A stretch of DNA of 64,000 nt, from contig CP084166.1 in NCBI GenBank assembly GCA_021513695.1, positions 2,048,001-2,112,000 of the forward strand. The letters run 5' to 3'. Shown here piece by piece: positions 2 through 63,722 of the stretch (position 1 is the first letter of the stretch; each line of letters begins with the position of its first letter). This DNA is from Candidatus Heimdallarchaeum aukensis. GTDB taxonomy: Archaea > Asgardarchaeota > Heimdallarchaeia > Heimdallarchaeales > Heimdallarchaeaceae. Both the position numbers and the translations under genes were made by a program. The notes beneath the pieces are model-generated. The model was not told the DNA's origin. It was given only the letters and a program-made list of their open reading frames with translations, and searched no databases.

Positions 2-3000
2 TTAGTAGGTGTAGGAGAGAGTACAGAGCAGTATATTGCTACAATCAGCAGAGAAGAAAAAACGATTACTTATTCCGCTATTCTAAGTTCAGCAGAGGAG
101 CAAGAACAGTGGAAATATTTCTATATTAGCCTTTATCAGCTTGCGAGACATATTCCTAAAGAATTACTTGTAGATAATTATTCAAATGGAAATAAAGAGG
201 TTGATCTATTAGATGAAAATTACCCTGTTTCTGGTATAATTTCTGATGCAAAAATGGTCGTTAATTATGAAGGTTCATATGTGGAAAAAATCATCCAATT
301 AGAAAAAGGAGCAAATCAAAATCTATACATTTCTGACTTGAAATCTACAATTACTAACATCCATAGCGCATATCCTTACGAAAATGCTTTATCTTCTTTG
401 CCTGAGGAAATAAAATGGAAAAAATATGATGTTCCATTTGATGGGTATATTCCTCTTGATAATGTCTATCTTGATGATTTTGACGGTAGTTCGTATTATA
501 TCTACGATGTAGTGGTTTATGTTGATGCTTCCACTTATTCTAAAGTACATTTAACAGTTGAAACTGAGGGATCTTTTGTTCTTTCTAACCGCTACTCTAT
601 AATATTACAAAAGATGGGTTTTTCAAACGAAGTTGTTTCTACAGTCTTTAGCGCACAACAAGGATATACTCCCTTGTATCTTCACGTTGTTTTTCCAAAA
701 ACAGCTTTTAATCAGAATATACGCATTCAATACATCTCCAATGGAGGAGTGGCTATAAGTGCTGAAAACAATAGAGAAGGAGATGCCATATCAGAGTGGT
801 TGATCTCTACTCCTTTCTATTCGGAAAAAAATGAGGACACCGTTGATTATCTTAATTTTATTTCACAAGTTACACCTATGGAAGGAGAGCGATTCGAAAA
901 AAGAGTAGTAGATTCAGAAGGATTTACCCACACAGAAACAATAGAATTTTCTGAATTCACTTTTCCTGGATTTTGTCCTATCTTAGACTTTGTTCCTCAT
1001 GCTGTTCCTTCAGGTTATTCTGTTATTCTCACTACTACGCTCGATTTCGCCAAAAGTTTGAACACTTCCTTAGTTCTACTTCTAAACAAAGAAAGTGGCA
1101 TAACAATACAATCCTTACTTTGGGATGAGACTCCACTTCTTTACATCAATGAAGGAGTATTTAACGAAATTGACTCCGATTTGGAAAATGGTATGATTAC
1201 TATACCTTTGAATAGTGAAGGGTTAACTGTCAACAGTCTCTTTTCTCCTAAAGAAAACAACCCTAATGAGTATGGTTTCATAGAAAACGACCCTGATTAT
1301 AACTTTCATTTTTCATCTTCTGACCCTTATAGTATAAAAACATCCTCTGTTAACCCTGATTCTGTTATTTTGAACAACAAAGGCATTCACAGAATAGTTA
1401 TCCAATTAACCTTTCCTTCTCCTTATAATACAGATTTTGGAATATATTTGGAAAATGTAGATGATAGCGTGCGAACTGTTTTATCTCCCTCAGATAAAGC
1501 AATAGACTTTCATGCAATCGCACAGAAGAACTTTATTCAATTTGAAAACGATCTTCATCAACCTCAAACTCTTGCTCAATTAGAGAAAAACGAGAATACT
1601 TTATTTAAATCACGATATTTCAAAGATGACTATGGTCAATACCATTCCTATAGAATTTATAGTCTTGGCTTTTCTGATGAATACACCTTAGATAAAGGAA
1701 AGAAATGGAAAATATATGATGGTGATACTGATGATTCTAACGATGTTATCTATGAAAGTACAGCTCACTACAATTGGAAACATGTAATAGGAAAGATGAA
1801 TTTTGCAATTGTTATAGATGAAGGAACTCCACAAGTTTTGCAATTGCCTTTTAATTTTCTAGTAGGTTACATGGTCTTTTGTGATTGGCTAGATACAAAT
1901 GGAGATGGATTAGAAGATACATGTGCTCCTTATATAGGTCTAGCAGACCCCTTAGATGCTAGTTCTACTTACGATGATGTAAAAAAAGGTGTAGTGTATA
2001 ATACAGAGGAAGAGAAGAAAATAAGTTATGATGTTACTGATGAACAACAAGCAGAACTCAAGAATCTTACTGTACGCCAATCGTTGATATCTTCTCTTTC
2101 AACTACAGTAATTACAAAAACAGAAGAAACCATCCCCTTATCCTACACTTCTGACGAAATAGCTGCTATTCAAAACAATGGATTAACTCTTGATCGTTAT
2201 CTTCATTCTTTAATAGAAAATGACTATTTGACCTACTCTGAAGATATTGCAAGAGTAGAAATAACTATTAGTTCTTCAAATAATAAAGAAATTGACCTTG
2301 CTTATGATTATGATAAAGAAATATTGTTCACCCACAGTGTTGATAATGCTACAGGAGAAGAAGAAAAAATAGTCTATGATTTTAGATATGACTGTTTTTC
2401 TGTCCTCACTCCTGATGCTCTTGCTAACGACAACTACAGAGTAGATTTTTATACTTTTAATAATAAACTAAGTCTCTATGATACCGATTTGTATAAACTT
2501 AAAGAAACGCCTAATTCTTACGGATTGTTAGATGATCCACAAACTCTTTCACCTATGGTAGTCTTAGAAAATTATAACTATGAAATAAAAGAAACAGTTA
2601 ATAGTCTTGATTCAAAAGATGAAGAAATTTTAAACAATAGTCCAACAACAATTGTAGACGCTTTTGTTCAAGGATTAAGTCTTTCTCAACTAAGCGTGGA
2701 AATGTATGATGCTGAAATAGAGATGGATTATTACAGTTTAGATCTCTTCTATTCTGTTTTCTTTAATGAATATTTGACTCTACAACAATTCTTCTATTCT
2801 CAAGAAACATTAAATAACAACCAGAATTATCAGTATTATCCTACTGGGACAATCCAATTTGCTAAATGGATTAGTTCAATACTTAACTCCTATATAATCC
2901 AACAATCAGACAAATTATTTGATGAATACCAAAACCGTACTTCTCGATATGATTCAGAGAAAAAAGCTATAGCTGCTATGTCCTTTTTGTTAGACCTTAT

Positions 3001-6000
3001 TATTCCTTATCGCGGATTCAAAACCTACGGTTCGGAACCTAAACCAGAAGAGACTCATCACCCACGTTTCTCTAGTTATGTGGACTTCAAATATAGTCTA
3101 GTTATGTTTTGGGGATTAATCTTAGGTAATAGTGCAGGCTGTGGAATACCTAAAAATTCTGTCTCTCTGTTTAGCGAGAGTGAGAGAACTGGAAAACTCT
3201 TGATGATTGACGAATTATGGGATAAAGCTATTAAACACTGGAACTTGGCAGATAAAAGTAGAATAGATGATCCTAGCGAATATTTGCCCTATACTGACCG
3301 AGCTGTAGTAGACAAAATACTGTTTGACGCCAGAGTAAGAGGAGATGAAGCTATGATCGACTGGATAACAAATGAAGATTATAGTGCTGAGGCTTATTAC
3401 ATGCAACCCTATGGAGTGGATTATTCGATCTATTACTGGTTGAAGGCTTTTACTATTCAACAAGGATATGACCCTTATGCTATCAAGGTTTACACCATTG
3501 AAGAGATGAATAGTCAAGAGAGAGAAGATTTTGACGAAAATTATTTTGTTATAGGCGTTCCTGTTTCCACAATCGAAGACCAATATTTAGAATATAACTG
3601 GTTTGTAAGTCTAGATAAAGAAACACGTGTGCCCACTTCTGCTACATCACAACTAATAGACTTTATCCCTCTTGTATTCGGTCAAAGTTCTAATCCACAT
3701 ATAAGAACAATGATGAAAATAATTAAAAGATTAGGAAATGCAGCAAAAGGAGAAAATTTCGGTTATAATACTTTTAGCATGAGTGAATTCAGCTTAATCG
3801 TTACTTTAGAATTTTTAGTTAATCTTGTAGATATAGGCGCTTTACTTATTGATATCAGAGATGCCTATATAGGAGCTACTCCTTTCATACGCAAAATGTC
3901 GCTCATGCAAATACCAATGGATATACTAGATTTGTTCACTCCAGGACCTTTTTCTCTCGTAGGAAATACAATGAATAAAATTTTCAAATCTATAGTCGGA
4001 GACGTTACCTTAGAAGTAAATAGGATAACAAAAACATTTAATTTACTAGATATTGTACAAAATTTCCCAAAAGGAGAGTGGAAAAGCATTGCTCGAGCAG
4101 CAGGAAAATCAGAACTAATGATCTGGATAGTTGGAGCAGCACAAGTGACTTACCGTTTCTCTAAACTAGCCAATCAATTCTATCAATGGTTCTTCTTCCT
4201 CCCGCAAAAGATTTTCATGAGTAGTTTACAAATAACTTTAGGGTCATTCATGATATTTGCCTCTAAAATGATTTATGCCATCAGAAGAATGGATATCGAA
4301 GAAGCAATGTTGTTAAACATTAAAGCGCAAAAATACTTCAACCAAGGACTAGATGATACCGCTAAAATGACAAGAGCTATATTAAGCCATCCAAAAATGC
4401 TAGCAAGATTTGGAACTGAAGAACTTATAGAACGAGCAAATATAGTAGCAAAATATTACATGAACATTATTATAAAGAAAGTAATGGAATTGGAAGCAAC
4501 ATCAAAAGCAATACTAGAATCGGTTGAAAAGTCACGCTTCTATGTTATGATGGCCTTAAGATATGCTACACATATGTACATGAACACCCCAGGAGGAGTA
4601 GGTATACACTTCTCTCCCAATTTAATTGATAATGAGAAAGAAACTGAAGGAATAAGACATTTCAACACCGTGGATAATATTTTGCCAAAATTAGAATATG
4701 AAATAGCAATGTATTACTGGAAGCATGAATATCTAGCGGATGATGAAAAAATAAAAGAGTATAATAGTGAAAAATTCAATTTCAGAGATGTAGAAAGCGC
4801 AAAAATACATATAACTATAGCTTTTTCATCTATTGCTGCAATACATTCGACACCAGAATCATTCCAAAGATATAAAGAACTACTAGAATACACAGATAAG
4901 AGGTTAATAGAAATAAAAAATGAAAAGGGTGAAAATCTAGAGTATACACCTATATGGTGGATTTTACATTTGCCTGTTGATCCCTCGCTACAAAAACTAG
5001 CCCTTAGCCACATATTTGATGAATCACCTGCAGTTTCACTGCTTCTAAAAGTTCTAATGGTAGAGAAAGGTCTTAACGAAGACTTATTAGAAAATAATAT
5101 CGACGATATAGATGAATACAATAAAGAAGTTCATTCCATTTTAGATCAAATTTTATCTTCTTCCCCCCTAAATATAAGTCATAAAGTCTTTATCCTTGAA
5201 AAAGATGAAAAAGGGAATCATATCTGGAAAGCAAGAATTTTAGATTTGTTAGGGCAATCTGAAGGATCATTAACTAAGTTAAGGACACGAGATGAATATA
5301 TTAAGTGGTCTGTAATCGGTAGAACAGGAATAGACTTGTTAGGCCTTTTCGGAAGTGAAGAATTAAAAAACTATTTTCCCAAAGGAGTAAGAAATGCTTT
5401 AACTGCTAGAAATGATCAAACTTCAATAATCTATGAGCTTATATGTATGGGATTATTAGATTTTAGATTTTATACAGATGATAAAAATGTAAAGGATCAA
5501 TTAAAAATTGATTTTCCAGAGCATGACTTTGAAAAAGAACCCAGTATTAGCATTGCTGAATTAGCTAAAAAATATAGTAAATATGATATTCTAGAATTAT
5601 TTGAAAAAAGTAATTTTATTAGACAGACTCTTATAAGTAATGGAGTAGACGGATTAATACACAGTACAAAAATAGGAAAGTCTCTTTATTCTGTTAAAGA
5701 TTCAACGGGAATATTCAATAAAGCTAATTCAAAAAATATTTTATACTCTGTAGCAGCTGAAAATGCATATATAGGTCATGGAAGTGTTATTTATTATTAT
5801 GATAAGCTACAAGGTGATATTATCACGGATATAGATAATAAATTGATATACAATGCTAGATATTATGATCCTACAGCTTCAAAATCACCTAAACCTTTTG
5901 TTCCAGGCGATGCAATATTACTCTATGATTCCAATGTAAATCGTTATCTGTTTTTAAGAACTAATTTTCCTGAGGACACTATGCTAAATCAAAATCAGAA

Positions 6001-8641
6001 ACTAGATGAATATAGTGGTTTTAAAAGAGAAATTAACGTGTTTTGGTTTCAAATAAACAAAGATACAAATGAGGGAGAGATAGTTTATGATACATTAGAA
6101 CACTATTGTTATGAAAATGAAAAACTGAAGGAAGGAATAAAAGTTGTTGGAACGGAGGATATTTTGCAAGAGGTAGATAAGTTTCATCCAAAGAGAAATA
6201 AAATAAGAAGTAGTCAACCTATAATATCAATAGAAGCAAAGCAAAATGGAGGGAACATAGATTACGTTGTCTCAATGGATGAACAACTTCCTTTATTTAG
6301 GTTTATAGGTGGAGATTATTCAACTGCAACAGAAAAAGACATCAATTTTGCTAGTTTTCTTTACCCAAGAAAACATTCCAACGATATTGTTTTCGGATTG
6401 CAAGATGATAACTTAGATTTTATCGATGAAAAGGGTTTATGGCCTATCCATATGGGTTTAAGCCCAGGAAGGTTTACATACAACGTGCAAAACATATATT
6501 TAGATGAGATTAATTCAGCAAAAGCGTTATTGGATAAATTAGATGAATTAGATAACTTGCCTGTAGTAGAAGTTAAAACAAAGGATAATGAATATATAAC
6601 TCGACCAGCAACAGTTCAGGAAGTAAATCAACAGAGAGTATATGAGTTAATTAGATGGTACTCTACAAGTCAAGTGTATACTTATTATGTGTCTAGTTTA
6701 AATAAAGAAAATAAAGCATTTTTGTGCAGAGCATATCTAGATGATTGGAATGCAGCTAAATCGTTAGGTGAAATCATAGAAATAGCAGAAGATACTAATG
6801 GAAATCTATACCAGAAATATGGTTATGAGAATAAACAAGAATATCTAACCTTTAGAATGAATGTTATTCAAACAATAATAAACGAACAAGAACAGTTCTA
6901 TAAATACAAGTTTAAAGATGAAAGTGATTTAACAAAAGAAGAAAAGTTGGTAATATTTCTAAAAGAACAAAAAGAATTTTTTGAAAGATTACATAATGAC
7001 GCTGCTAAAATAGAGGCATTTCAAGAACCATTTTTTTCAAACTTGAGACTAGACATTAAAGAAGTCGATACATATAATGTACTTAATTATCGCAGTTTAG
7101 AATCGTCAATTGAATTACTTTTATTAAATAGATTTGACTCGTATAATAAGATACACTTATTCGAAGGAGATGTACCTTTTTCAAGAAACCCGATGAAATT
7201 CGGTTTCGATAATGTAATTGTCCAAATAGGTACGAGAGCATTCATAAACAAGGTCAAAGAAGAGGGAATATTAGATTTTGATGAAGATAAAAATTCAGTA
7301 TTAGAACTAGCTAATAAAGTATTTAAAAGAAAAACAGTTATAAAACCATTAATCCGCGGACCAATAAAAGCAAAATCAATTGCTTTTCTCCAACATGAAG
7401 AAACAATGGCTAAACTGAACAATTATAAAACATTGCAAAAAATATCCAAAGAAGAAATAAGGCTCTGGAAACTTTACAACAAAAAATTAGATAATGAAAA
7501 AGGCCATTTGACTGTAGAGCAACTATACGAAATAGAAGAAGAGTTCAACAATATAAATGGAAAAAATATAGTAGGAAAACAAGGAGCAGGGATGACAGTA
7601 ATAGAAGATGGAAACACATATGTTGTAAAAATATACAGTCTCATCAGTGATTTAAGATATAATAACAAAATTCATGCAGGTAGTGAGGCAAATAAGTATG
7701 ATATTGCAGAAAGAGTGTTGGGACTAGCACAACACATAAAGTACGTAGCAAAGGAAGGAAGAATATACATTAATTATGCAATGGCAAACATTCTTTATCT
7801 GATAAAAACACTAACAAACGGTAAAATGGAAATAGATGACGTCCAGAATCTAAGGGACCTGGGAAATCCAAAGGAATTAGAAGCTATACTAGTAAATAAT
7901 TTAGGGGAAGAAAGAACAAAAGAAATACTAAATATTTTAGAAGAAGTAACCATAAGAACGAAAAGAAAAATAAAACAAGGAAAAGATTATTCCATAGAAA
8001 ATATAGAAAAAGGACAATCGTTGGCTTTTCAAATTGGATATGTGGATCTGAAAAATATAACCCCTGAGGTAAGAGGAAAATTAAGGCTACAAGGGATGTT
8101 ATTGAGAGAAATCTTGATGTTACTGGATATAATATATGGACTATATTATACAGGAAGAAATTATATGAAACGCCTAGATATTAATTTAGCGCAAACAACA
8201 GTAATTTTCGAAAAAACAACGGAAGAAGGCAAAACAATACTAAAATTAAAAGACGTAAAAACAAGCACAGAACAAGAAATGAATGGAGAGTTCATATCAT
8301 CACTGAACGATTTCGACCAAAAAACAGCATCAATAATAGAAAAACTGGCTGAAACTAAATATTCATCAGTATTTGGACCAGAATTTATGACTAGAGAACA
8401 ATTAAGAAAATTGGTAGATGAAATAATAGAAGAATATGAGAGTATACTAAAATTGAAAATAAGAAAATTCAATGAAATATTAACTCAAGACGATATGGAA
8501 GTAGAACTAGTAGCAAAGAAATTCAAAATAGAAGAATTGCTAAAAATGCTAACACCTAAAGGATTATGGTCAATGTACGAGCAAAAGAAAAGAAATAATG
8601 AAAAAAGAGGACAAACAAAAATAACAGACTTCCTAATTTAA
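2..8641 (+). CDS. giant hypothetical membrane-associated protein, 5'-partial (ORF open to window edge)
   Basis: One uninterrupted frame. Frame 2 has no stop between nt 2 and the first ATG at 254, so the ORF continues upstream of the window. Hydrophobic helices are encoded at about 3780-4290 (FSLIVTLEFLVNLVDIGALLIDI, ELMIWIVGAAQV, LQITLGSFMIFASKMIYAI). I recognise no catalytic motif. Confidence 0.75.
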   Translation, partial: LVGVGESTEQYIATISREEKTITYSAILSSAEEQEQWKYFYISLYQLARHIPKELLVDNYSNGNKEVDLLDENYPVSGIISDAKMVVNYEGSYVEKIIQLEKGANQNLYISDLKSTITNIHSAYPYENALSSLPEEIKWKKYDVPFDGYIPLDNVYLDDFDGSSYYIYDVVVYVDASTYSKVHLTVETEGSFVLSNRYSIILQKMGFSNEVVSTVFSAQQGYTPLYLHVVFPKTAFNQNIRIQYISNGGVAISAENNREGDAISEWLISTPFYSEKNEDTVDYLNFISQVTPMEGERFEKRVVDSEGFTHTETIEFSEFTFPGFCPILDFVPHAVPSGYSVILTTTLDFAKSLNTSLVLLLNKESGITIQSLLWDETPLLYINEGVFNEIDSDLENGMITIPLNSEGLTVNSLFSPKENNPNEYGFIENDPDYNFHFSSSDPYSIKTSSVNPDSVILNNKGIHRIVIQLTFPSPYNTDFGIYLENVDDSVRTVLSPSDKAIDFHAIAQKNFIQFENDLHQPQTLAQLEKNENTLFKSRYFKDDYGQYHSYRIYSLGFSDEYTLDKGKKWKIYDGDTDDSNDVIYESTAHYNWKHVIGKMNFAIVIDEGTPQVLQLPFNFLVGYMVFCDWLDTNGDGLEDTCAPYIGLADPLDASSTYDDVKKGVVYNTEEEKKISYDVTDEQQAELKNLTVRQSLISSLSTTVITKTEETIPLSYTSDEIAAIQNNGLTLDRYLHSLIENDYLTYSEDIARVEITISSSNNKEIDLAYDYDKEILFTHSVDNATGEEEKIVYDFRYDCFSVLTPDALANDNYRVDFYTFNNKLSLYDTDLYKLKETPNSYGLLDDPQTLSPMVVLENYNYEIKETVNSLDSKDEEILNNSPTTIVDAFVQGLSLSQLSVEMYDAEIEMDYYSLDLFYSVFFNEYLTLQQFFYSQETLNNNQNYQYYPTGTIQFAKWISSILNSYIIQQSDKLFDEYQNRTSRYDSEKKAIAAMSFLLDLIIPYRGFKTYGSEPKPEETHHPRFSSYVDFKYSLVMFWGLILGNSAGCGIPKNSVSLFSESERTGKLLMIDELWDKAIKHWNLADKSRIDDPSEYLPYTDRAVVDKILFDARVRGDEAMIDWITNEDYSAEAYYMQPYGVDYSIYYWLKAFTIQQGYDPYAIKVYTIEEMNSQEREDFDENYFVIGVPVSTIEDQYLEYNWFVSLDKETRVPTSATSQLIDFIPLVFGQSSNPHIRTMMKIIKRLGNAAKGENFGYNTFSMSEFSLIVTLEFLVNLVDIGALLIDIRDAYIGATPFIRKMSLMQIPMDILDLFTPGPFSLVGNTMNKIFKSIVGDVTLEVNRITKTFNLLDIVQNFPKGEWKSIARAAGKSELMIWIVGAAQVTYRFSKLANQFYQWFFFLPQKIFMSSLQITLGSFMIFASKMIYAIRRMDIEEAMLLNIKAQKYFNQGLDDTAKMTRAILSHPKMLARFGTEELIERANIVAKYYMNIIIKKVMELEATSKAILESVEKSRFYVMMALRYATHMYMNTPGGVGIHFSPNLIDNEKETEGIRHFNTVDNILPKLEYEIAMYYWKHEYLADDEKIKEYNSEKFNFRDVESAKIHITIAFSSIAAIHSTPESFQRYKELLEYTDKRLIEIKNEKGENLEYTPIWWILHLPVDPSLQKLALSHIFDESPAVSLLLKVLMVEKGLNEDLLENNIDDIDEYNKEVHSILDQILSSSPLNISHKVFILEKDEKGNHIWKARILDLLGQSEGSLTKLRTRDEYIKWSVIGRTGIDLLGLFGSEELKNYFPKGVRNALTARNDQTSIIYELICMGLLDFRFYTDDKNVKDQLKIDFPEHDFEKEPSISIAELAKKYSKYDILELFEKSNFIRQTLISNGVDGLIHSTKIGKSLYSVKDSTGIFNKANSKNILYSVAAENAYIGHGSVIYYYDKLQGDIITDIDNKLIYNARYYDPTASKSPKPFVPGDAILLYDSNVNRYLFLRTNFPEDTMLNQNQKLDEYSGFKREINVFWFQINKDTNEGEIVYDTLEHYCYENEKLKEGIKVVGTEDILQEVDKFHPKRNKIRSSQPIISIEAKQNGGNIDYVVSMDEQLPLFRFIGGDYSTATEKDINFASFLYPRKHSNDIVFGLQDDNLDFIDEKGLWPIHMGLSPGRFTYNVQNIYLDEINSAKALLDKLDELDNLPVVEVKTKDNEYITRPATVQEVNQQRVYELIRWYSTSQVYTYYVSSLNKENKAFLCRAYLDDWNAAKSLGEIIEIAEDTNGNLYQKYGYENKQEYLTFRMNVIQTIINEQEQFYKYKFKDESDLTKEEKLVIFLKEQKEFFERLHNDAAKIEAFQEPFFSNLRLDIKEVDTYNVLNYRSLESSIELLLLNRFDSYNKIHLFEGDVPFSRNPMKFGFDNVIVQIGTRAFINKVKEEGILDFDEDKNSVLELANKVFKRKTVIKPLIRGPIKAKSIAFLQHEETMAKLNNYKTLQKISKEEIRLWKLYNKKLDNEKGHLTVEQLYEIEEEFNNINGKNIVGKQGAGMTVIEDGNTYVVKIYSLISDLRYNNKIHAGSEANKYDIAERVLGLAQHIKYVAKEGRIYINYAMANILYLIKTLTNGKMEIDDVQNLRDLGNPKELEAILVNNLGEERTKEILNILEEVTIRTKRKIKQGKDYSIENIEKGQSLAFQIGYVDLKNITPEVRGKLRLQGMLLREILMLLDIIYGLYYTGRNYMKRLDINLAQTTVIFEKTTEEGKTILKLKDVKTSTEQEMNGEFISSLNDFDQKTASIIEKLAETKYSSVFGPEFMTREQLRKLVDEIIEEYESILKLKIRKFNEILTQDDMEVELVAKKFKIEELLKMLTPKGLWSMYEQKKRNNEKRGQTKITDFLI

Positions 8642-10326: not shown

Positions 10327-12684
10327 TTGTTCAGAACTTTATTCTTTTTTTGTTCCTTAAGCGTAACCTTTTTTATTTTTCCTCAATACATACTCTGGAT
10401 AGCAAAATTGACCTCCTATATTCCTTTATCTCTTTCTGATGTTGTGCATAAAATAAGTATCTATGAGTCTGAATTGAATTTATTTAATAGTTCCAAGAAA
10501 AAAAACTTTGGTATCTACTATACCCCTGACTTTATAGTTGATTATATTGTTTCTAACGCTTTTCTTAGATATTTATCGAAGTTTGACAGCGATATTCCGC
10601 AATTAGTTAAGAAAATCTTGTCTCTTAACTCAAACCTCTCAAATCATGAAAAAAAGATTCTAATATATTTACACCAACATATTTTTCCAAATATAACTGT
10701 CTGTGATATATCGATGGGTTGGGGTGTCTTCCTCATCCATACATTTGATTACTTATTTTTACTGCGTAAAAACGTATTTATTCTTTTATATTCTCCTTCT
10801 TCTTCTGAATTAGAAGAGGAAAGCAAAAAAATCGCTATAGATATCATTCAGAATAGTCTTTTTGGTGCTGATCTTTCCGAAAAGGCTATAGAATTGGCTC
10901 AATTAAAGTTATTTAAACAAGTAATGGAAGCTCTAAATTGTTCTAATATTAAACTTCCTCGTGCTAATTTTAGACAAGGAAATAGTTTACTAGGTTTTAT
11001 TAATAAAGAATATATTAATGGAAAGGATTCTACAAACTACTGGGTTGAACTTTTTTTATCTAAATTTAAAAAGAAAACATTAATCACAGAAGTTTATAAC
11101 TTTTTAAGAAAACAAAAACTAGTTCATTGGAAATCATTTTTTCCTCAATTGAGAAATCGAGAAGGTTTTGATATTATCGTAGGAAATCCCCCCTACATCA
11201 ATGTTAAACGTTTACCACAAATTGAGAGATATATTTATGCAAGCATTTATGAAACTTATAATTCCAACGGTGATCTATCTAACGTTTTCTGGGAACGTGC
11301 ATTATCAATATTACGTCCCTCTGGAGTTGTTTCTTTTATAGTTCCTCGATACTGGTTAGAGGGTAAAGATAGCAATAAATTGAGATATTTTATCCAGAAG
11401 AATTCTAGAATCCTTGAAATCATGGACTTCCAAAGTAATAGGAGTTTGTTTTCTGAGAGCGAAAAAAAGTTGGGGGTCGATGTTTCTATTGTAACTTTAG
11501 AAAAAAGAAAAGAAAAAGGATTGTTTGACGTTTATATTTTACAAAATTCTGAGAGAATAACCTCTGTCAATAAACATAATTTTCTTGTTAAACAAATCGA
11601 TCAAGAATCCCTCTCCTCTTCAAGATGGAACTTTAATGTTCCTAAACTGGTTGAATATCTCGATGAACATAGTTGTTTAACACTTGGGGGAGATAAAGAA
11701 AATAATATTCCTGGTGTGTGTTATATCGGGAAAGGTTGTTCAACAGGTAATAATTCAATATTTACTTTAAAAAAAATTAAAGATAATATATTTGAAGGAT
11801 ATAAAAAAGTTAAACTTTCTCTCCCTGAAAATGAACAAAGAGTTTTAAGAAGATTAATTAAAAATAGTGATATTACCCGCTATTTTCTTAAAAAACAAGA
11901 GCGATATTGGATATTTCTCAAAGACAAGTCTATTTCAGATTACCCTATGATTGAGCAGTATCTACATAAGTATATCGAGAAACTCAAAGAAACACAAAAA
12001 AAATATGGTAGTAAGAACTTCTTTGACTATGCAGCCTATCGCTCTTTAAATTTAATTGATAGTGTTCCAAAAATCGTAACGCCATATCAGTCTTCAATTA
12101 ATAGATTTGCTTTAGTTAAAAGTAAAGCGCCCCTAACAATTAATGAAACAGATGTTATCACTCTTGTTATCAAACAAGAAATGCGTTCTAAGTTGGACTG
12201 GTTTTTTCTTCTTTCTCTTCTAAATTCTGAACTTTTACATTATTATATTAAACACAGAAACAAAAAAATTTACTATCTCTACGATTTTAGAACAAGTCAA
12301 ATTACCACTCTACCTATTCAAGTCTCTCACAACCAAAAAGTGGTAAGTTTCTTTTCTGAATGTATGTACAGAGCACAAGCACTTCAATTGGATGATAGAC
12401 TATATATGCAAGTCAGATCTAAACTCGAGTTTATAATAAATTCTTTGGTTTTTGAAATTTATCTTAGAGAGAAACTATCTTCAGAATTAGAAGAAGTGTT
12501 GCAAGAAATTGTCTTTACGCAGAAACCTGAAGTCATTAATTTTAAACGCGAAAATGAATTTCTTTCAAAAATATTGTCCTCTCCTACAATTATTAAACAA
12601 CTAAGACAGATTTACTCAAATAAGGAAGTAACCTCTGTAGTTAAAGATTTAAGTTTACCCTATTCAAAATTTATTATAAAGTGA
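10327..12684 (+). CDS. N6-adenine DNA methyltransferase, Eco57I/TaqI-like gamma class, no nuclease domain seen
   Basis: Motif X GIYYTPDFIVDYIV, motif I DISMGWGVFL and motif IV IVGNPPYI are present. The long C-terminal half looks like a target-recognition region. There is no ATG upstream of motif X; the track start is TTG 10327, so the exact start is uncertain. Confidence 0.8.
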   Translation: MFRTLFFFCSLSVTFFIFPQYILWIAKLTSYIPLSLSDVVHKISIYESELNLFNSSKKKNFGIYYTPDFIVDYIVSNAFLRYLSKFDSDIPQLVKKILSLNSNLSNHEKKILIYLHQHIFPNITVCDISMGWGVFLIHTFDYLFLLRKNVFILLYSPSSSELEEESKKIAIDIIQNSLFGADLSEKAIELAQLKLFKQVMEALNCSNIKLPRANFRQGNSLLGFINKEYINGKDSTNYWVELFLSKFKKKTLITEVYNFLRKQKLVHWKSFFPQLRNREGFDIIVGNPPYINVKRLPQIERYIYASIYETYNSNGDLSNVFWERALSILRPSGVVSFIVPRYWLEGKDSNKLRYFIQKNSRILEIMDFQSNRSLFSESEKKLGVDVSIVTLEKRKEKGLFDVYILQNSERITSVNKHNFLVKQIDQESLSSSRWNFNVPKLVEYLDEHSCLTLGGDKENNIPGVCYIGKGCSTGNNSIFTLKKIKDNIFEGYKKVKLSLPENEQRVLRRLIKNSDITRYFLKKQERYWIFLKDKSISDYPMIEQYLHKYIEKLKETQKKYGSKNFFDYAAYRSLNLIDSVPKIVTPYQSSINRFALVKSKAPLTINETDVITLVIKQEMRSKLDWFFLLSLLNSELLHYYIKHRNKKIYYLYDFRTSQITTLPIQVSHNQKVVSFFSECMYRAQALQLDDRLYMQVRSKLEFIINSLVFEIYLREKLSSELEEVLQEIVFTQKPEVINFKRENEFLSKILSSPTIIKQLRQIYSNKEVTSVVKDLSLPYSKFIIK

Positions 12685-12708: not shown

Positions 12709-13146
12709 TTAAGTCAATAATTTGCCTAATTTAATAGCTGCTCTTTCTAAATCTAAAAATAGTAAACCAAGTTTTGTGTCTGGTGTAGTGGAAACGGTGA
12801 TAACTGCATTTTCTCCTGCTTGCATTGTAACAATATATCCATTATCTCCTTCAATAAGAATCTTCTTTACTTTTCCTTTTCTTAATTCTGAAACCACACG
12901 TTCCCCTAGAGACAAGCTTGCTGCAGTCATTGCTGAAATGCGAGTTTCATCAATGTTGTCCAACATTAATGAAGCTATGGGTAACCCTTCGACAGAAACA
13001 ACCGCGATATCTAAAATCCCTGGGGACTTGAATCTTAATTCACTTATACAATCAGTTATTTCTTCACTAATTTTGTTTGTTAGAATTCCAAAAGACAATA
13101 TTTTCACTCCTAATTTTTCCTTTGATTGTTCTCCTTTTTTATACAA
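12709..13146 (-). CDS. Roadblock/LC7 (MglB-like) domain protein
   Basis: SPGILDIAVVSVEGLPIASL ... ISAMTAASLSLGERVV ... ILIEGDNGYIVTMQAGENAVITV fits the roadblock alpha-beta-alpha pattern. The antisense ORF 12722-13207 has no such signal. Confidence 0.8.
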   Translation of the reverse strand: MYKKGEQSKEKLGVKILSFGILTNKISEEITDCISELRFKSPGILDIAVVSVEGLPIASLMLDNIDETRISAMTAASLSLGERVVSELRKGKVKKILIEGDNGYIVTMQAGENAVITVSTTPDTKLGLLFLDLERAAIKLGKLLT

Positions 13147-13434
13147 AAATAGAACTTATAAAGACCACAAAATGTTAGTGATAATTCAAAAAGAAAATAG
13201 TTTTTAGCAGTAGGCACTAACCTTTCTTCTAAAGTTTTTGCAATATGTCTGTCTCAACCCTCTCCTTTCATTGTATGTTTAGGTTGAGTTACCAAGTGAT
13301 TAAACTTCCTTTAGTTTTCTCTCTTGAAAGACTGAGTGCGAAAAACTTACGTAAAAAAGTAAATTATATCAATCGACACACTTAAATCATTTAATAATCG
13401 GTTGAGGACAAAGGTTAGATTTTGGTGAATCAGT

Positions 13435-31896: not shown

Positions 31897-32835
31897 GTGA
31901 TTGAACTGGATGATAAATTTCAGAAAATAGTTGATGATATCCGAGCTCTTCGTATTCAAGGAGCGACCAATATTGCTATTGAGGGCGTTAAGGCTTTCTC
32001 TTCTTTAGCTGAGCGAATAGATTTTTCTTCTCTCCCTGATTATTTTGAACATCTTAAGAAAGCTAGTATTATTTTATCTACTGCTAGAGATACTGAACCT
32101 GCTTTACGTAATGGTTTACACTTTATTCTTTACGAGTTAGAGCATCAAGCTAGTTCTGTTTCTGAGGCTAAGGAACTTGTTTCTTCTCTTTCCCAGAAAT
32201 ACGTTGAGATGTTGAAGGATTCTAAAAGGAAAGTTATCTCTTATGGAGCTCACCGGATTCGTGATAATAGTGTTATTATGACTCATTGTCATTCTTCCTT
32301 GTCTACTGGTATAATTATTGAGGCTCACCGTCAGGGTAAAAACATTGAGGTTTTTCTTACTGAGACTCGTCCTAAGTGGCAGGGTCGTATTACTGCTAAG
32401 GAGATGGTTGATGCTGAGATTCCTACTACTATGGTTGTTGATAGTGCTATGCGTTACGTAATCAACAGACATAATGTTGATATTGTTATTACCGGTGCTG
32501 ATGCAATTACTAGCCAAGGTACTGTTATTAATAAGATTGGTACTCGTCTTTTAGCTTTGGCTGCTAGGGAAATGGATGTTCCTTTTTATACCGCTATCAA
32601 CTTGTTGAAGTATGATGCTTCCACTACTATTGGCAAGTTATCTGCGATTGAATTTCGCCCTTCTTCTGAAGTTTGGGAAGATCCTCCTAAAGGTTTGAAA
32701 ATTCTTAATCCTGCATTTGAGACAGTTTCTCGTGATCTTATTGATGGTGTAATCACTGAAGCTGGTATTTTTGCTCCTTCCTTGGTTTACATGATTATTA
32801 AAGAGCGTTATCCCTTTATGCTCTTAAACGAATGA
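31897..32835 (+). CDS. ribose-1,5-bisphosphate isomerase (eIF-2B alpha/beta/delta-like family)
   Basis: IMTHCHS, TETRPKWQGRITAKEM, ITGADAITSQGTVINKIGT and NPAFE blocks closely resemble the characterised Thermococcus enzyme. GTG start. Confidence 0.85.
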   Translation: MIELDDKFQKIVDDIRALRIQGATNIAIEGVKAFSSLAERIDFSSLPDYFEHLKKASIILSTARDTEPALRNGLHFILYELEHQASSVSEAKELVSSLSQKYVEMLKDSKRKVISYGAHRIRDNSVIMTHCHSSLSTGIIIEAHRQGKNIEVFLTETRPKWQGRITAKEMVDAEIPTTMVVDSAMRYVINRHNVDIVITGADAITSQGTVINKIGTRLLALAAREMDVPFYTAINLLKYDASTTIGKLSAIEFRPSSEVWEDPPKGLKILNPAFETVSRDLIDGVITEAGIFAPSLVYMIIKERYPFMLLNE

Positions 32836-56671: not shown

Positions 56672-58393
56672 TTGATCGACTTGAAAGCAATTGCAATCGG
56701 ATTGAAAGTATTAGGTTTTATCTTAATATTTACCACGGCCTTTGTGCCTATCTACAAGATTTATTATGATGCTACTCCACTGAGTGAGCATGACAAGTAT
56801 ACACAAGATTCACTTTTAATTAGTATATTTGGTTCGAGAGTTGAATATAATACTATAGGATATGATTACAATAACAATATCACGAAGGTGTATACGGAGT
56901 TACAAATTCCTAGTAATATAGTCCTACTGTCTGCAGCGCTATGGTTTTTGTTATTCTTTAGTGTTCTCGCTGCTGCTTTAGGTCAAGTATTTCAGTCAGG
57001 AGGAGTGAAAAAGAGAGGTAATATGGCAGACATAATGGCTGCATTATTCCTGTTAGTCTCTTTGATTGTTCTCATAATTGCTATTAATCGGACTTTGAAC
57101 TTCACTGCGAGTGAATACAAAGCGGTATTGTCTGGACAGACTGCTACTCCTTCATCTGCAGTAACTTTCAATCCCAATGATAGTAATCCTTCTTATTTCT
57201 TAATTAGCTTACGTGGAAAAATGACCTTCATGTTTTATATTTATATTATTGGTGTTCTTCTCACTCTAACAGGTTTATTCTTACCTGTTGATTGGACAAA
57301 ACCAAGTGAGGGAACATTCAGTAAAAAATTCGCTAGTTCTAAACCCATTTCCTTTATTAAACAAATAGCTACAATGAGGTTGACCATCTATATTCTTCGC
57401 CGACTTCTTACACTCATCCCCTTGTTCATTGCCATTATGGTTATGACCTTTGTAATGGTTTCTGGGTTGGGAGACCCTGTCGCATTGTTACTCTTGGGTA
57501 AGATTAACGTTACCGAGGAAGACAAAATTAACCTTACTAGATCTCTTGGATTGGATCAACCTGTTTATGCTCGATTTGTTATTTGGTTCTATAACTTCCT
57601 TCATGGTAATATGGGTGAAAGTTATCGTGGTGGTCGTTCTATTAACACCATGATTGGTGAACTTGTTTGGGAAACACTAAAACTTCAGCTTGCTTCTTTT
57701 GTTTTAGCTTTACTCATAGCTATTCCTCTAGGTGTGGTCGCAGCTAAGAATCAGAATACTTGGATTGATTCAACTGCAAGCACTATCGCTCTTCTTGGTT
57801 TGTCCATGCCTATTTTCGTTTTTGGTTTAATGCTTATTTATATCTTCAGTGGATATGGTTTAGGCTGGCTACCAGCAGCTAAAGCACATTCCATTCCAAC
57901 TCCTGTTGTTGATTGGTCCGCACTCCGGGCAGGAGACTGGGGTACGTGGTGGTCCTCGCTGATGGCGCGTACGGGAGATTCAATAATTCACATGATCCTT
58001 CCAACTACTGCTTTGACCTTCGCTTCTCTTGCTACCTATACTCGTTTAGTCAGAACAACAATGTTAGAAGTTCTTCGCCAAGATTATATTTTAGCAGCTC
58101 GAGCTAATGGTCTTTCTGAACGAGTTATTACTTGGAAACATGCTTGGAGAAACGTTCTTATTCCTGTAGTTACTTATGTTGGTCTATTTTTAGCTTCGGC
58201 TTTAGCTGGTGCTCCTATTACAGAAACGCTTTTCACTTGGCCTGGTTTAGGTTATAGGTATGTTGTTGCTGTGGGTCTTTTGGATTTTCCGATGATTTTG
58301 GGTACAACTGCTATTCTTACTATTTTGATCCTTTTAGGAAATTTAGTTACTGATATTGTTTACGTCGCTGTTGACCCGAGAATTGAATTGTAG
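56672..58393 (+). CDS. Opp/Dpp-type ABC transporter permease (DppB-like) with ~234-aa N-terminal 4-TM extension
   Basis: The canonical permease begins at MRLTIYILRRLLTLIPLFIAIMV (ATG 57374). The same frame is open back to TTG 56672 and encodes extra TM helices. Confidence 0.8.
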   Translation: MIDLKAIAIGLKVLGFILIFTTAFVPIYKIYYDATPLSEHDKYTQDSLLISIFGSRVEYNTIGYDYNNNITKVYTELQIPSNIVLLSAALWFLLFFSVLAAALGQVFQSGGVKKRGNMADIMAALFLLVSLIVLIIAINRTLNFTASEYKAVLSGQTATPSSAVTFNPNDSNPSYFLISLRGKMTFMFYIYIIGVLLTLTGLFLPVDWTKPSEGTFSKKFASSKPISFIKQIATMRLTIYILRRLLTLIPLFIAIMVMTFVMVSGLGDPVALLLLGKINVTEEDKINLTRSLGLDQPVYARFVIWFYNFLHGNMGESYRGGRSINTMIGELVWETLKLQLASFVLALLIAIPLGVVAAKNQNTWIDSTASTIALLGLSMPIFVFGLMLIYIFSGYGLGWLPAAKAHSIPTPVVDWSALRAGDWGTWWSSLMARTGDSIIHMILPTTALTFASLATYTRLVRTTMLEVLRQDYILAARANGLSERVITWKHAWRNVLIPVVTYVGLFLASALAGAPITETLFTWPGLGYRYVVAVGLLDFPMILGTTAILTILILLGNLVTDIVYVAVDPRIEL

Positions 58394-61749: not shown

Positions 61750-61883
61750 AACTGCAGAGAAATTAATCATTTTTTCTTTTTTTAATTTTAAAATTCATTC
61801 TTTTTTTTAAAAAATGATCTGATATTATTTTATACTACCGCTAAAAATAAAAATGATAAGTATCAACTTATCATTGATAGATT

Positions 61884-62822
61884 GTGAATGACAAAGTACT
61901 AAAGGTAGGAAAAGAATCAGTACCCGTAACTATACTTGGGTTAGAAAATGCTGGAAAAACCACTCTAATTGAGAGGTTAAAAACAGGTTCTTTTGTAGAA
62001 GATACAACTCCTACATTAGGTGTAAGCTTTGAATCTTTTAAAGTAGGTGATACTTTATTCAAGATTTTTGATGTTGGGGGACAATTTGTTTATCGAAAAC
62101 AGTTTTGGGTAAATTACGCATCAAATAGCTATGGTATTATCTTTGTATTTGATGCCTCCGATAAAGAAAGAACAACAGAAGGAAAAGAGTGGTTCTGGTA
62201 TCTAATAGACAATATTGAAATTGAAGACCGAATAGTTGTAGCTTTTTTTGCTAATAAAGCCGATTTAGAATGCATGTCAATAGAAGAAATTATTGAAGCG
62301 CTTGAACTCCCAAGGATGAGTGAGCACTCAAAGATTAGTTTCCAAATATTTAAGACAAGTAATAAAACAGGCGAAGGAATAGACGCTGCATTAGATTGGT
62401 TTACAAACAAACTAAAACAAATAGGAAAAGAAAAAATAGTCCATCCAAAAGGTTTGATTATAAGTACAACACTAGGCAGAGTGCAGTTATTCTTAGATCT
62501 TGAAGGATTATCACAACAAATATCGCAAATCAGAGAATTATTAGCTCAAATATTTAAATATGAATCAGCTACGCTCAAAGAAGAAAAATTATCTACTATT
62601 TCAAACGAGAATATAAAACTCGTATGTCACGAAAGAAGTGACGTGATAATAACAATGATCATAAATCCAGAAGAATCTCATGTAGAAGCTCAAAGATATA
62701 TTGAGCAAGTGTATGAATACTTAGAAAAGAAAACAGCAAAAACGAAAGATGAGCTTATAAAAGGAATATTAAACTTACTAAATATTAAAGATGAAAGTAA
62801 AGTTAAGATAATTACAATGTAA
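61884..62822 (+). CDS. Arf/Rag-like small GTPase with C-terminal roadblock/longin-like domain
   Basis: G1 GLENAGKTT, G3 DVGGQ followed by the WxxY-like FWVNY, G4 NKAD, G5 TSNKTG. About 130 further residues have an alpha/beta pattern. GTG start. Confidence 0.8.
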   Translation: MNDKVLKVGKESVPVTILGLENAGKTTLIERLKTGSFVEDTTPTLGVSFESFKVGDTLFKIFDVGGQFVYRKQFWVNYASNSYGIIFVFDASDKERTTEGKEWFWYLIDNIEIEDRIVVAFFANKADLECMSIEEIIEALELPRMSEHSKISFQIFKTSNKTGEGIDAALDWFTNKLKQIGKEKIVHPKGLIISTTLGRVQLFLDLEGLSQQISQIRELLAQIFKYESATLKEEKLSTISNENIKLVCHERSDVIITMIINPEESHVEAQRYIEQVYEYLEKKTAKTKDELIKGILNLLNIKDESKVKIITM

Positions 62823-62910
62823 GAAACTTTTTTTCATTTTCAATTTTTTCTTTTTTATTAGACATCAAAATTATTCTATCTACCCTCACAGTAAATCTCT
62901 AAAAAATAAT

Positions 62911-62987
62911 TGGAGCCCCGGGGGGGACTTGAACCCCCGACCATTTGATTACAAGTCAAACGCTCTACCGAGCTAAGCCACCGAGGC
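62911..62987 (-). tRNA. tRNA-Thr(UGU), CCA encoded
   Basis: Acceptor GCCTCGG/CCGGGGC, anticodon arm TTTGA-CTTGTAA-TCAAA, T arm GGGGG-TTCAAGT-CCCCC, then TCCA. Confidence 0.88.
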
Positions 62988-63407
62988 CTTTTTATACATA
63001 TTGCTTTTTCTTTTGTTTTTTTGTTTTTCTTTTTCTTTGTGCTAAAAAATTTTTTTATTAGTTACAATTTTCTTTTCTCTTTTCTTCCTTTTTTACTAAT
63101 ATTTTTCTAATAATTATCTGGGTATTACATTTTCTTTTTAATCACTTTTTGCATTGTTTCCGACATAAAACTTCTTAGTTCATTTTTTAAATAAGTATTT
63201 GCGTTTAAGCCCCCTCCCCTTTGTTTCCAATGGAGTGTGCCGTTTTTTGTTATTTTGGCCGCTCTATCGCCTTTTTCTGAAAAATATTTAACCTTATTCT
63301 TTTTTTAATATATTTCCACTGAAACAATGAAAAGGTTTAATATTATATTAGGTTACTTTTTAAATAATAACATCTCAGTTAATATAGTGAAAGCAAAAAC
63401 AGGTGGT

Positions 63408-63722
63408 ATGATGACTACAATCGCACAAGCCCAAGAAAAATTACTTGAACTCATTCATAGTAGAAATAGTATAAAGCAGACTGACACCGTTCGTATCCCC
63501 AAGCTTCCCAGTAGGATAATTGGTGAAAGAATGCTAGATGCTTTTGCCAATCAAATCCAAAATGATGTTGAAGGTTTAGAATCAGATCCATATATTGAAG
63601 ATGAATTAGTTGAAAGTTTATTAAGCACTTTAGCTTTAGCAGGGCTTGTTGGTATTGATCTTGAATCAAAATTGGAAGAGATTCTATCTTTAATGGAAAT
63701 TGTAACAGCTGATAGTTCTTAA
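63408..63722 (+). CDS. small all-alpha protein, possibly MazG-like nucleotide pyrophosphohydrolase
   Basis: DELVESLLSTLALAGLVGIDLESKLEEIL resembles the MazG helix pair. The start is uncertain (track 63327, internal ATG 63408). Confidence 0.35.
   Translation: MMTTIAQAQEKLLELIHSRNSIKQTDTVRIPKLPSRIIGERMLDAFANQIQNDVEGLESDPYIEDELVESLLSTLALAGLVGIDLESKLEEILSLMEIVTADSS

Follow-up and report, generated by a model that had tools for sequence, protein, structure and literature searches.

An Arf-type small GTPase with a predicted C-terminal longin domain in Candidatus Heimdallarchaeum aukensis

The gene at positions 61884..62822 of a 64,000-nucleotide stretch of the Candidatus Heimdallarchaeum aukensis genome (contig CP084166.1, positions 2,048,001 to 2,112,000 of the forward strand; this whole stretch is hereafter called the window) encodes a protein of 312 amino acids (aa) made up of two parts, namely a G domain that we file, judging by its sequence, as Arf-family and ArfR-type, and a C-terminal domain predicted to adopt the longin fold. 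Reasoning by analogy with other small GTPases, we consider it probable that the protein works as a soluble nucleotide switch devoid of a membrane-inserting helix, with the longin domain serving as a platform for dimerization or partner binding. Arf-family GTPases and longin domains are both core parts of eukaryotic membrane trafficking, and how they came together belongs to the open question of eukaryogenesis; in the window protein the two are found covalently joined in a member of the Heimdallarchaeaceae, the membrane-inserting helix having been lost or never possessed. If the longin domain does act as a dimerization or partner platform, these small soluble proteins, encoded in complete genomes, would provide a tractable system for studying the roles of Arf-type switches before endomembranes.

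The finding confirms known biology and overturns nothing, because the Arf-like annotation of the protein, the ArfR family of Asgard archaea and GTPase-longin fusion proteins are already public. In the literature searched we did not find a C-terminal, sequence-orphan longin on a helix-less ArfR, nor the Gln/His split at the catalytic position or the conserved gene cluster with PAS and TPR proteins that are described below; on account of the orphan longin, the split and the cluster we regard the subfamily as moderately interesting, though unsurprising.

An ArfR-type G domain joined to a predicted longin fold

The open reading frame (ORF), which like all features described here lies on the forward strand unless stated otherwise, is complete, with a GTG start at 61884 and a TAA stop at 62820-62822; the GTG start is consistent with the N-termini of the homologs in the alignment, and the antisense strand across the ORF is crowded with stop codons. 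Two public proteins of the same 90%-identity cluster, UJG42565.1 (Ca. Heimdallarchaeum endolithica) and UJG40047.1 (Ca. H. aukensis), are annotated in GenBank as 'ADP-ribosylation factor-like protein', and a scan in which each species was represented by a single genome located an ortholog with 93% identity on the chromosome of Ca. Heimdallarchaeum endolithica PR6, where the surrounding gene order is the same as in the window. Comparison of the window and PR6 genes gave dS 0.79, dN 0.035 and dN/dS 0.044, and since the ratio is equally low in the G domain (0.045) and in the C-terminal domain (0.041), both halves of the protein are under strong purifying selection. The ORF is thus real, being conserved and selected.

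The G domain (61920..62429, aa 13-182) carries all of the motifs that the initial annotation of this DNA had reported as intact. These are the G1 or P-loop sequence GLENAGKT (61938..61961, aa 19-26); the G2 switch I threonine Thr44 (62013..62015), which aligns with Thr48 of Arf1; the G3 sequence DVGGQ (62070..62084, aa 63-67), which contains the catalytic Gln67 and runs directly into FVYRKQFWVNY, the Arf-like FWVNY included; the Arf/Ras-like G4 sequence NKAD (62253..62264, aa 124-127); and the G5 sequence TSNK (62355..62366, aa 158-161), which aligns with TSAT of Arl1. The strings KGLIISTTLGRVQLFLDLEG and DVIITMIINPEE, which had been quoted from the C-terminal part, are likewise present there. 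In 24 full-length homologs the residues G19, G24, K25, T26, T44, D63, G66, N124, K125, D127 and S159 are invariant, and sequence features compatible with the Arf interswitch toggle, in which the register shifts by two residues between the GDP and GTP forms, can be recognized in a beta2-beta3 hairpin, in DVGGQ and in Trp75, the equivalent of Arf1 Trp78. The G domain is probably complete and catalytically competent.

As to its family, the Pfam search returned Arf (PF00025) with 122.7 bits (E=1.4e-35, cut-off 22.3), followed by Ras with 49.8 and SRPRB with 33.9 bits, and gave no Gtr1_RagA match to the G domain. Human Arf1 was matched in the Protein Data Bank (PDB) with E=7e-27, and all 60 of the PDB sequence matches listed were to Arf/Arl proteins or to Asgard ArfR structures, the latter scoring 93.2 (8OUL), 90.4 (8OUK) and 82.6 bits (8OUN); the earlier description of a eukaryote-like Arf-family small GTPase, that is, of a protein of eukaryotic signature type in an Asgard genome, is therefore borne out. 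In BLAST comparisons the G domain scored 97-103 bits, with 35-38% identity, against human Arf1, human Arl1 and Leishmania Arl1, whereas among the class-labeled Asgard references (the Hel and Loki sequences in Table S3 of Vargova et al.) the scores amounted to at most 63 bits for RagGtr and 62 for RasL. In a rough neighbor-joining tree, which was built with capped distances, 300 bootstraps and few labeled references, including one labeled ArfR, of Lokiarchaeial origin, the window protein groups with its paralogs (bootstrap 73), then with the Lokiarchaeial ArfR (51) and then with the eukaryotic Arfs (40), and lies outside ArfL (98), RasL (92) and most RagGtr sequences. At G4, HK[YFIN]D is present in six of the eight complete labeled Asgard RagGtr G domains that were read, a ninth sequence being truncated. 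It is because the Pfam result, the PDB matches, the bit scores, the tree and the NKAD sequence at G4 agree that we file the G domain as ArfR-type rather than Rag-type, with the caveat that the tree is only a rough one. The same comparisons bear on the proposal of membership in a prokaryote-type group, either MglA or the Asgard-only ArfL, with a likeness to Arf that is superficial: ArfL proteins, too, frequently carry a longin-like domain, at their N-terminus, but the G domain scores no higher than 55.5 bits against seven labeled ArfL sequences and 23 against MglA (22.7 for MglA1), and in the tree the ArfL sequences, as already mentioned, and those of MglA form clades of their own, so that we find this proposal scarcely credible.

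The C-terminal domain (62445..62819, about aa 188-312) comprises strands at 190-195 and 200-205, a helix at 209-228, strands at 236-240, 245-251 and 254-260, and helices at 266-282 and 288-298; its conserved residues, listed as polar, are P188, K189, D205, E250, S265, Q270 and R271. AlphaFold2 (AF2), run on the domain alone with a 16-sequence alignment, returned a model with a predicted local distance difference test score (pLDDT) of 86 and a predicted template modeling score (pTM) of 0.82, in which the order is beta-beta-alpha-beta-beta-beta-alpha-alpha (in isolated-domain numbering, strands 8-13 and 18-23, helix 27-43, strands 53-58, 63-69 and 72-78, helices 84-100 and 106-116). According to Tran et al. 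(PMC10933270), the longin topology is one without an N-terminal helix and with two C-terminal helices. Foldseek comparisons yielded TMq values of 0.55-0.67 to the longins of AP sigma, zeta-COP, Sec22b and VAMP7, and of 0.36-0.51 to roadblock proteins. Sequence searches were uninformative by comparison: no Pfam match was obtained with 16 members, a profile search of the PDB gave nothing below E=0.19, and hmmsearch against 1.84 billion representatives retrieved only five clusters, all from the domain's own family. The domain was identified by fold comparison alone, and in the models it is a longin fold. Neither a Robl_LC7 profile match nor a helix ahead of beta1-beta2 is present in it, and the alpha-beta-beta-alpha-beta-beta-beta topology of Rag-type C-terminal roadblock domains is not that of the window protein. 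The initial annotation was therefore right about an additional alpha/beta domain of ~130 aa from the roadblock/longin superfamily, and of its label 'roadblock/longin-like' the longin half stands, on topology and Foldseek comparison, whereas the roadblock half does not. The full-length AF2 model has a pTM of 0.83, which suggests that the G and longin domains are held in a defined arrangement. Neither a placement among MglA or Era-like families nor a C-terminal domain lacking both folds, the outcomes that had been named beforehand as fatal to the annotation, was found.

These results also bear on the annotation as 'Rag-type', which implies a Rag/Gtr-family GTPase with domains homologous to those of RagA/C, acting in a Ragulator-like nutrient-sensing complex together with stand-alone roadblock proteins such as that encoded at 12709-13146. 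Some observations favor this reading, since Rag/Gtr proteins, including the Asgard RagGtr protein LokiRagO (PDB 8YL2), have their domains in the same order, the G domain first and then an alpha/beta sandwich that belongs to the roadblock/longin superfamily, operonic pairs of paralogs in relatives are reminiscent of the RagA/RagC heterodimer, some paralogs have weak Gtr1_RagA matches, and the stand-alone protein in the window is a genuine member of Robl_LC7 (PF03259, E=5.9e-19). Set against this are the missing Gtr1_RagA match, the NKAD sequence at G4 and the gap between the scores to RagGtr and those to Arf/Arl. Taken together, the sequence comparisons largely refute the Rag/Gtr family assignment, which we judge very improbable; what holds of the parallel with the Rag/Gtr architecture is the order of the domains and possibly the logic, but not the homology.

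The window protein is best appreciated against the systems that it resembles. The Asgard ArfR GTPases have been described and structurally characterized (HodArfR1 and GerdArfR1; PDB 8OUL/8OUK/8OUN/8OUM; Vargova et al., bioRxiv 10.1101/2024.02.28.582541; cited as Nat Microbiol 2025); unlike them, the window protein lacks an amphipathic helix and has both an extra C-terminal longin domain and, relative to Arf1/Arl1, a one-residue insertion in switch II, and most of its orthologs have His in place of Gln. With eukaryotic Arf1, Arf6 and Arl1 it shares 35-38% identity across the G domain and every G motif, with the double-Gly DVGGQ and the switch II Trp among the common features, but it has no myristoylation site or amphipathic helix, is fused to a longin domain and resides in an archaeal host with no demonstrated endomembranes. 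Covalent joining of a small GTPase to a longin or roadblock domain has precedents in the 26 such fusions of Ca. Prometheoarchaeum MK-D1 (Tran et al. 2024, PMC10933270) and in the 'AArfs' that bear additional domains, e.g. an N-terminal longin (Zhu et al. 2025, PMC11914678), proteins that are likewise annotated as Arf-like; the MK-D1 fusions are, however, Lokiarchaeial and structurally Rag-like, and the AArfs carry their extra domain at the N-terminus. The window subfamily differs in being Heimdallarchaeaceae-specific and ArfR-type, with a C-terminal longin that has no sequence match beyond its own family. To the longins of TRAPPC4, AP mu/sigma, delta/zeta-COP, VAMP7, Sec22b and Ykt6 the domain shows 7-16% identity, and it differs from them in having no match to a Pfam longin family and in being attached to a GTPase. 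In the eukaryotic signal recognition particle receptor pair SRbeta-SRalpha(SRX), SRbeta is a polypeptide distinct from SRX and is anchored in the membrane by its N-terminus; we found no specific sequence relationship between SRbeta-SRX and the window protein.

The N-terminus, switch II and the proposed mechanism

The reading of the protein as a soluble switch stems from its N-terminal segment, MNDKVLKVGKESV (61884..61922, aa 1-13), which stands where Arf proteins have their amphipathic helix. Ahead of the P-loop glycine there are just 18 residues, as compared to 23 in human Arf1; the segment has a mean hydrophobicity of -0.31 (net polar) and a hydrophobic moment (muH) of 0.49, lacks Gly2, and is unconserved among orthologs, muH amounting to 0.14 in the distant ortholog P0020; and AF2 models it as coil with low pLDDT. 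By length, hydrophobicity, conservation and AF2 prediction alike, the N-terminal amphipathic helix that is the hallmark of Arf proteins was not found in the window protein. This helix, which switches with the nucleotide state, is family-defining according to Vargova et al. and is needed for the membrane binding of HodArfR1 and GerdArfR1 (bioRxiv 10.1101/2024.02.28.582541). A classical membrane-binding Arf switch in the manner of these two proteins and of Arf1, which would attach through its N-terminus upon GTP binding and carry the longin as a passenger effector module, can be argued for from the fact that its closest characterized relatives do bind membranes in this way, from the moderate hydrophobic moment of the segment and from the occurrence of longin domains as subunits of Arf-recruited coats (AP sigma/mu, COPI zeta/delta). 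Yet an N-terminus that is five residues shorter than that of Arf1, polar, without Gly2, unconserved and predicted to be coil makes such a mechanism quite improbable. Switch II, for its part, has the one-residue insertion relative to Arf1/Arl1 mentioned above, and an insert in switch II has been reported by Tran et al. for GTPase-roadblock architectures (PMC10933270).

We propose as a model that the window protein would be a soluble GTP/GDP switch without N-terminal membrane insertion, and that the attached longin domain would take over the output and assembly role; its nucleotide state would then be read through a protein complex instead of through insertion into a membrane. Most likely, we infer, the longin domain mediates homo- or heterodimerization or the docking of partners, since longin and roadblock domains are known to serve small GTPases as dimeric platforms (Levine 2013; Tran 2024, PMC10933270); examples of such platforms are provided by the C-terminal domains of Rag proteins, by SRalpha-SRX in its pairing with SRbeta, by TRAPP and by Mon1-Ccz1. 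The main rival to this proposal is regulation in cis, whereby the longin domain would fold back against the switch-bearing face of the G domain in the same chain and act as an autoinhibitory lid or as an element resembling a GTPase-activating protein or a guanine nucleotide exchange factor. Models for this are provided by MglB, the TRAPP longins and SRX, which bind the switch regions of GTPases in trans; on the other hand, the region of the beta1-beta2 loop (the site of the GP motif in the Traffic paper) contains no conserved Arg, R199 being replaced by N, K or S in orthologs. Regulation in cis, which we hold to be possible but rather doubtful, is compatible with dimerization, and the two could operate together.

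Orthologs, paralogs and gene neighborhoods

Full-length orthologs with 47-78% identity were recovered from about a dozen species of Heimdallarchaeaceae or 'Heimdallarchaeota'. More distant homologs of ~315 aa, which have the same two-part layout and align through residue ~287 with 29-34% identity, occur in Hodarchaeales and in other metagenome-assembled genomes (MAGs), mostly labeled Hodarchaeota, Heimdallarchaeota or Promethearchaeota; between the C-terminal domain and the Hod-type ~315-aa homologs there is a marginal profile match, in register, with a probability of 10% and an E of 0.003. The Heimdallarchaeaceae contain, in addition, three further groups of paralogs, of 299, 308 and 318 aa, each of which combines an Arf-type G domain with an unassigned C-terminal domain of ~120 aa; their G domains cluster with that of the window protein, at 110-158 bits.

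In more distant Heimdall relatives, genes of the 312-aa type are embedded in a conserved cluster. The order there is that of a 299-aa Arf-type paralog, a protein of ~430 aa with one PAS domain, the 312-type gene itself and a protein of ~900 aa that matches TPR_12 weakly, and large PAS/histidine-kinase (PAS/HisKA) genes often adjoin the cluster. We encountered this arrangement at 18 relatives' loci on at least 13 different contigs (an example is locus L004:3721-9759; others are L001, L002, L008, L011-L015, L017-L021 and L025). Searches with the ~900-aa protein and with the 299-type paralog retrieved 21 and 23 proteins, respectively, all of them Heimdall-derived where named. The module formed by the 299-aa, PAS and ~900-aa proteins does not surround the window gene.

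Genes of the 308 and 318 types are directly adjacent and co-oriented at four loci (L038:6013-7849, L040:6016-7852, L041:1405-3241 and L058:73-1966), which suggests paired GTPases, and at L008 and L017 both types occur, non-adjacent, in one cluster. The 308-type paralog is present elsewhere in the window's genus, in H. endolithica (L042); an almost identical copy in L043 (CAYTAB010000041.1) is labeled Woesearchaeota, a bin that is probably mislabeled or contaminated. Separately, at L044:5983-7074, L047:5983-7065 and L050:5983-7068, in MAGs labeled Hodarchaeota and Heimdallarchaeota, two Arf-like G domains stand back to back on the same strand, ~60 nucleotides (nt) apart, and may form a single tandem double-GTPase protein; the near-identical L046, L048, L049 and L051 are labeled Promethearchaeota and Hermodarchaeota. 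Neighboring paralog pairs and tandem, ArfR-like genes with two G domains would fit a 'paired GTPase' logic of the RagA/C kind built out of Arf-type parts.

The family is split, moreover, at the catalytic position. The Gln of DVGGQ (codon 62082-62084 in the window) is replaced by His, giving DxGGH, in 20 of the 24 family members, and DxGGH was seen in every cluster-embedded ortholog checked, whereas DxGGQ is found in solitary genes (the window, PR6, L006/L007 and L010). Sar1 also has a His (H79) at the catalytic Gln position. The special relationship to Sar1 that the DxGGH orthologs might suggest was considered and rejected, Sar1 ranking below many Arf/Arl matches and the best solved relative being HodArfR1: the latter is the best PDB match of the distant H-type ortholog P0020 (82 bits, the next distinct protein being Arl1 with 68.8) and likewise of a Hod-type homolog. 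As a separate matter, Sar1-like genes with DLGGH or DMGGH turned up in bacteria-labeled MAGs (L059, L061, L063 and L087, with the labels 'uncultured bacterium', Oligoflexales, Chitinophagaceae and Devosiaceae), one of them in in-frame pieces as if split by an intron; they are probably eukaryotic contamination of bacterial bins.

On the strength of the cluster and of the His in place of Gln, the H-type orthologs may act in a paired-GTPase signaling module rather than in the recruitment of vesicle coats. The window's genus, conversely, appears to lack the cluster module, given that word-indexed searches gave no match to the ~900-aa protein or the 299-type paralog on the 3-Mb Heimdallarchaeum chromosomes; with these partners missing and the Gln kept, the protein would there most likely work alone or as a homodimer. 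A bolder proposal is that the Heimdallarchaeaceae paralogs composed of a G domain and a C-terminal domain are obligate dimers held together by their C-terminal domains (312 with 299 and 308 with 318, the genes of each pair being neighbors in many genomes, and the solitary Gln-bearing 312 type with itself), and thereby an Arf-derived, independent counterpart of the Rag heterodimer. We deem this unlikely; if true, such dimers would in most lineages be coupled to a sensor protein with a PAS domain and to a TPR scaffold of ~900 aa, would constitute a previously undescribed signaling module in the archaea most closely related to eukaryotes, and might be a relic of an ancestral pairing of Arf-family GTPases and longins that survives in SRbeta-SRX and in the Arf-recruited coats.

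Several observations weigh against the picture of an ArfR-type soluble switch that assembles through its longin domain. The deep nodes of the neighbor-joining tree are weak (bootstrap 40-51), with a single labeled ArfR to anchor them. The C-terminal domains of the 299- and 308-type paralogs show no detectable homology to that of the window protein (hhalign probability <1%), so that a mode of dimerization shared with the paralogs is an assumption. The failure to find the ~900-aa protein and Arf299 on the 3-Mb Heimdallarchaeum chromosomes comes from word-indexed searches, as opposed to a full genome scan. Lastly, one solitary ortholog, L016, has His (DLAGH), and the correlation of Gln or His with gene context probably goes back to no more than one or two changes in evolution.

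Flanking DNA and other features of the window

Between the GTPase gene and the ABC-transporter genes upstream lie 134 AT-rich bases. They include the element TTTATACTACCGCTAAAA (61829..61846), ~50 nt upstream of the start codon, which has the same sequence in the window as in H. endolithica, between flanks that differ, and which we take to be a putative archaeal TATA-box/promoter region. Closer to the gene, 8 nt upstream of the GTG, is a perfect 10-bp inverted repeat with a 4-nt loop, AATGATAAGT-ATCA-ACTTATCATT (61852..61875), 8 of the 10 bp of each arm being retained in H. endolithica PR6; this candidate could be an operator or a hairpin of the 5'-untranslated region. Directly 3' of the stop codon, three oligo-T tracts (62828..62857) resemble an archaeal transcription terminator, and the next feature downstream is a tRNA-Thr gene (TGT) on the opposite strand (62911-62987). 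The AT-rich gap with TTTATACTACCGCTAAAA, the oligo-T tracts and the opposite-strand tRNA-Thr point to separate transcription, and the GTPase gene is probably monocistronic.

By tblastn, no other small GTPases were detected in the 64-kb window, and the second 312-aa ORF of the window (31897-32835) is unrelated to the GTPase. Upstream of the GTPase gene, the first permease of an oligopeptide-type ABC transporter (56672-58393) has a hydrophobic N-terminal extension of ~230 aa ahead of BPD_transp_1, a length that is kept in H. endolithica. A 131-aa ORF downstream (63327-63722) has no Pfam match; its position and length are conserved in H. endolithica (L009, 7437-7832). The Roadblock/LC7 gene at 12709-13146 lies on the reverse strand, 49 kb from the GTPase gene and with no evident linkage to it; a 161-aa ORF on the forward strand (12722-13207) that overlaps it is probably spurious. 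The ORF at 10327-12684, which lies between the genes for Spt5/NusG and the roadblock protein, encodes 785 aa; its product combines Eco57I-type methylase and N6_Mtase domains with a TaqI_C specificity domain and resembles a type IIG/IIL-like restriction-modification enzyme. A giant ORF of 2795 aa occupies the start of the window (254-8641), and further tRNA genes of the window are those for Pro (18201), Leu (20000) and Val (54888).

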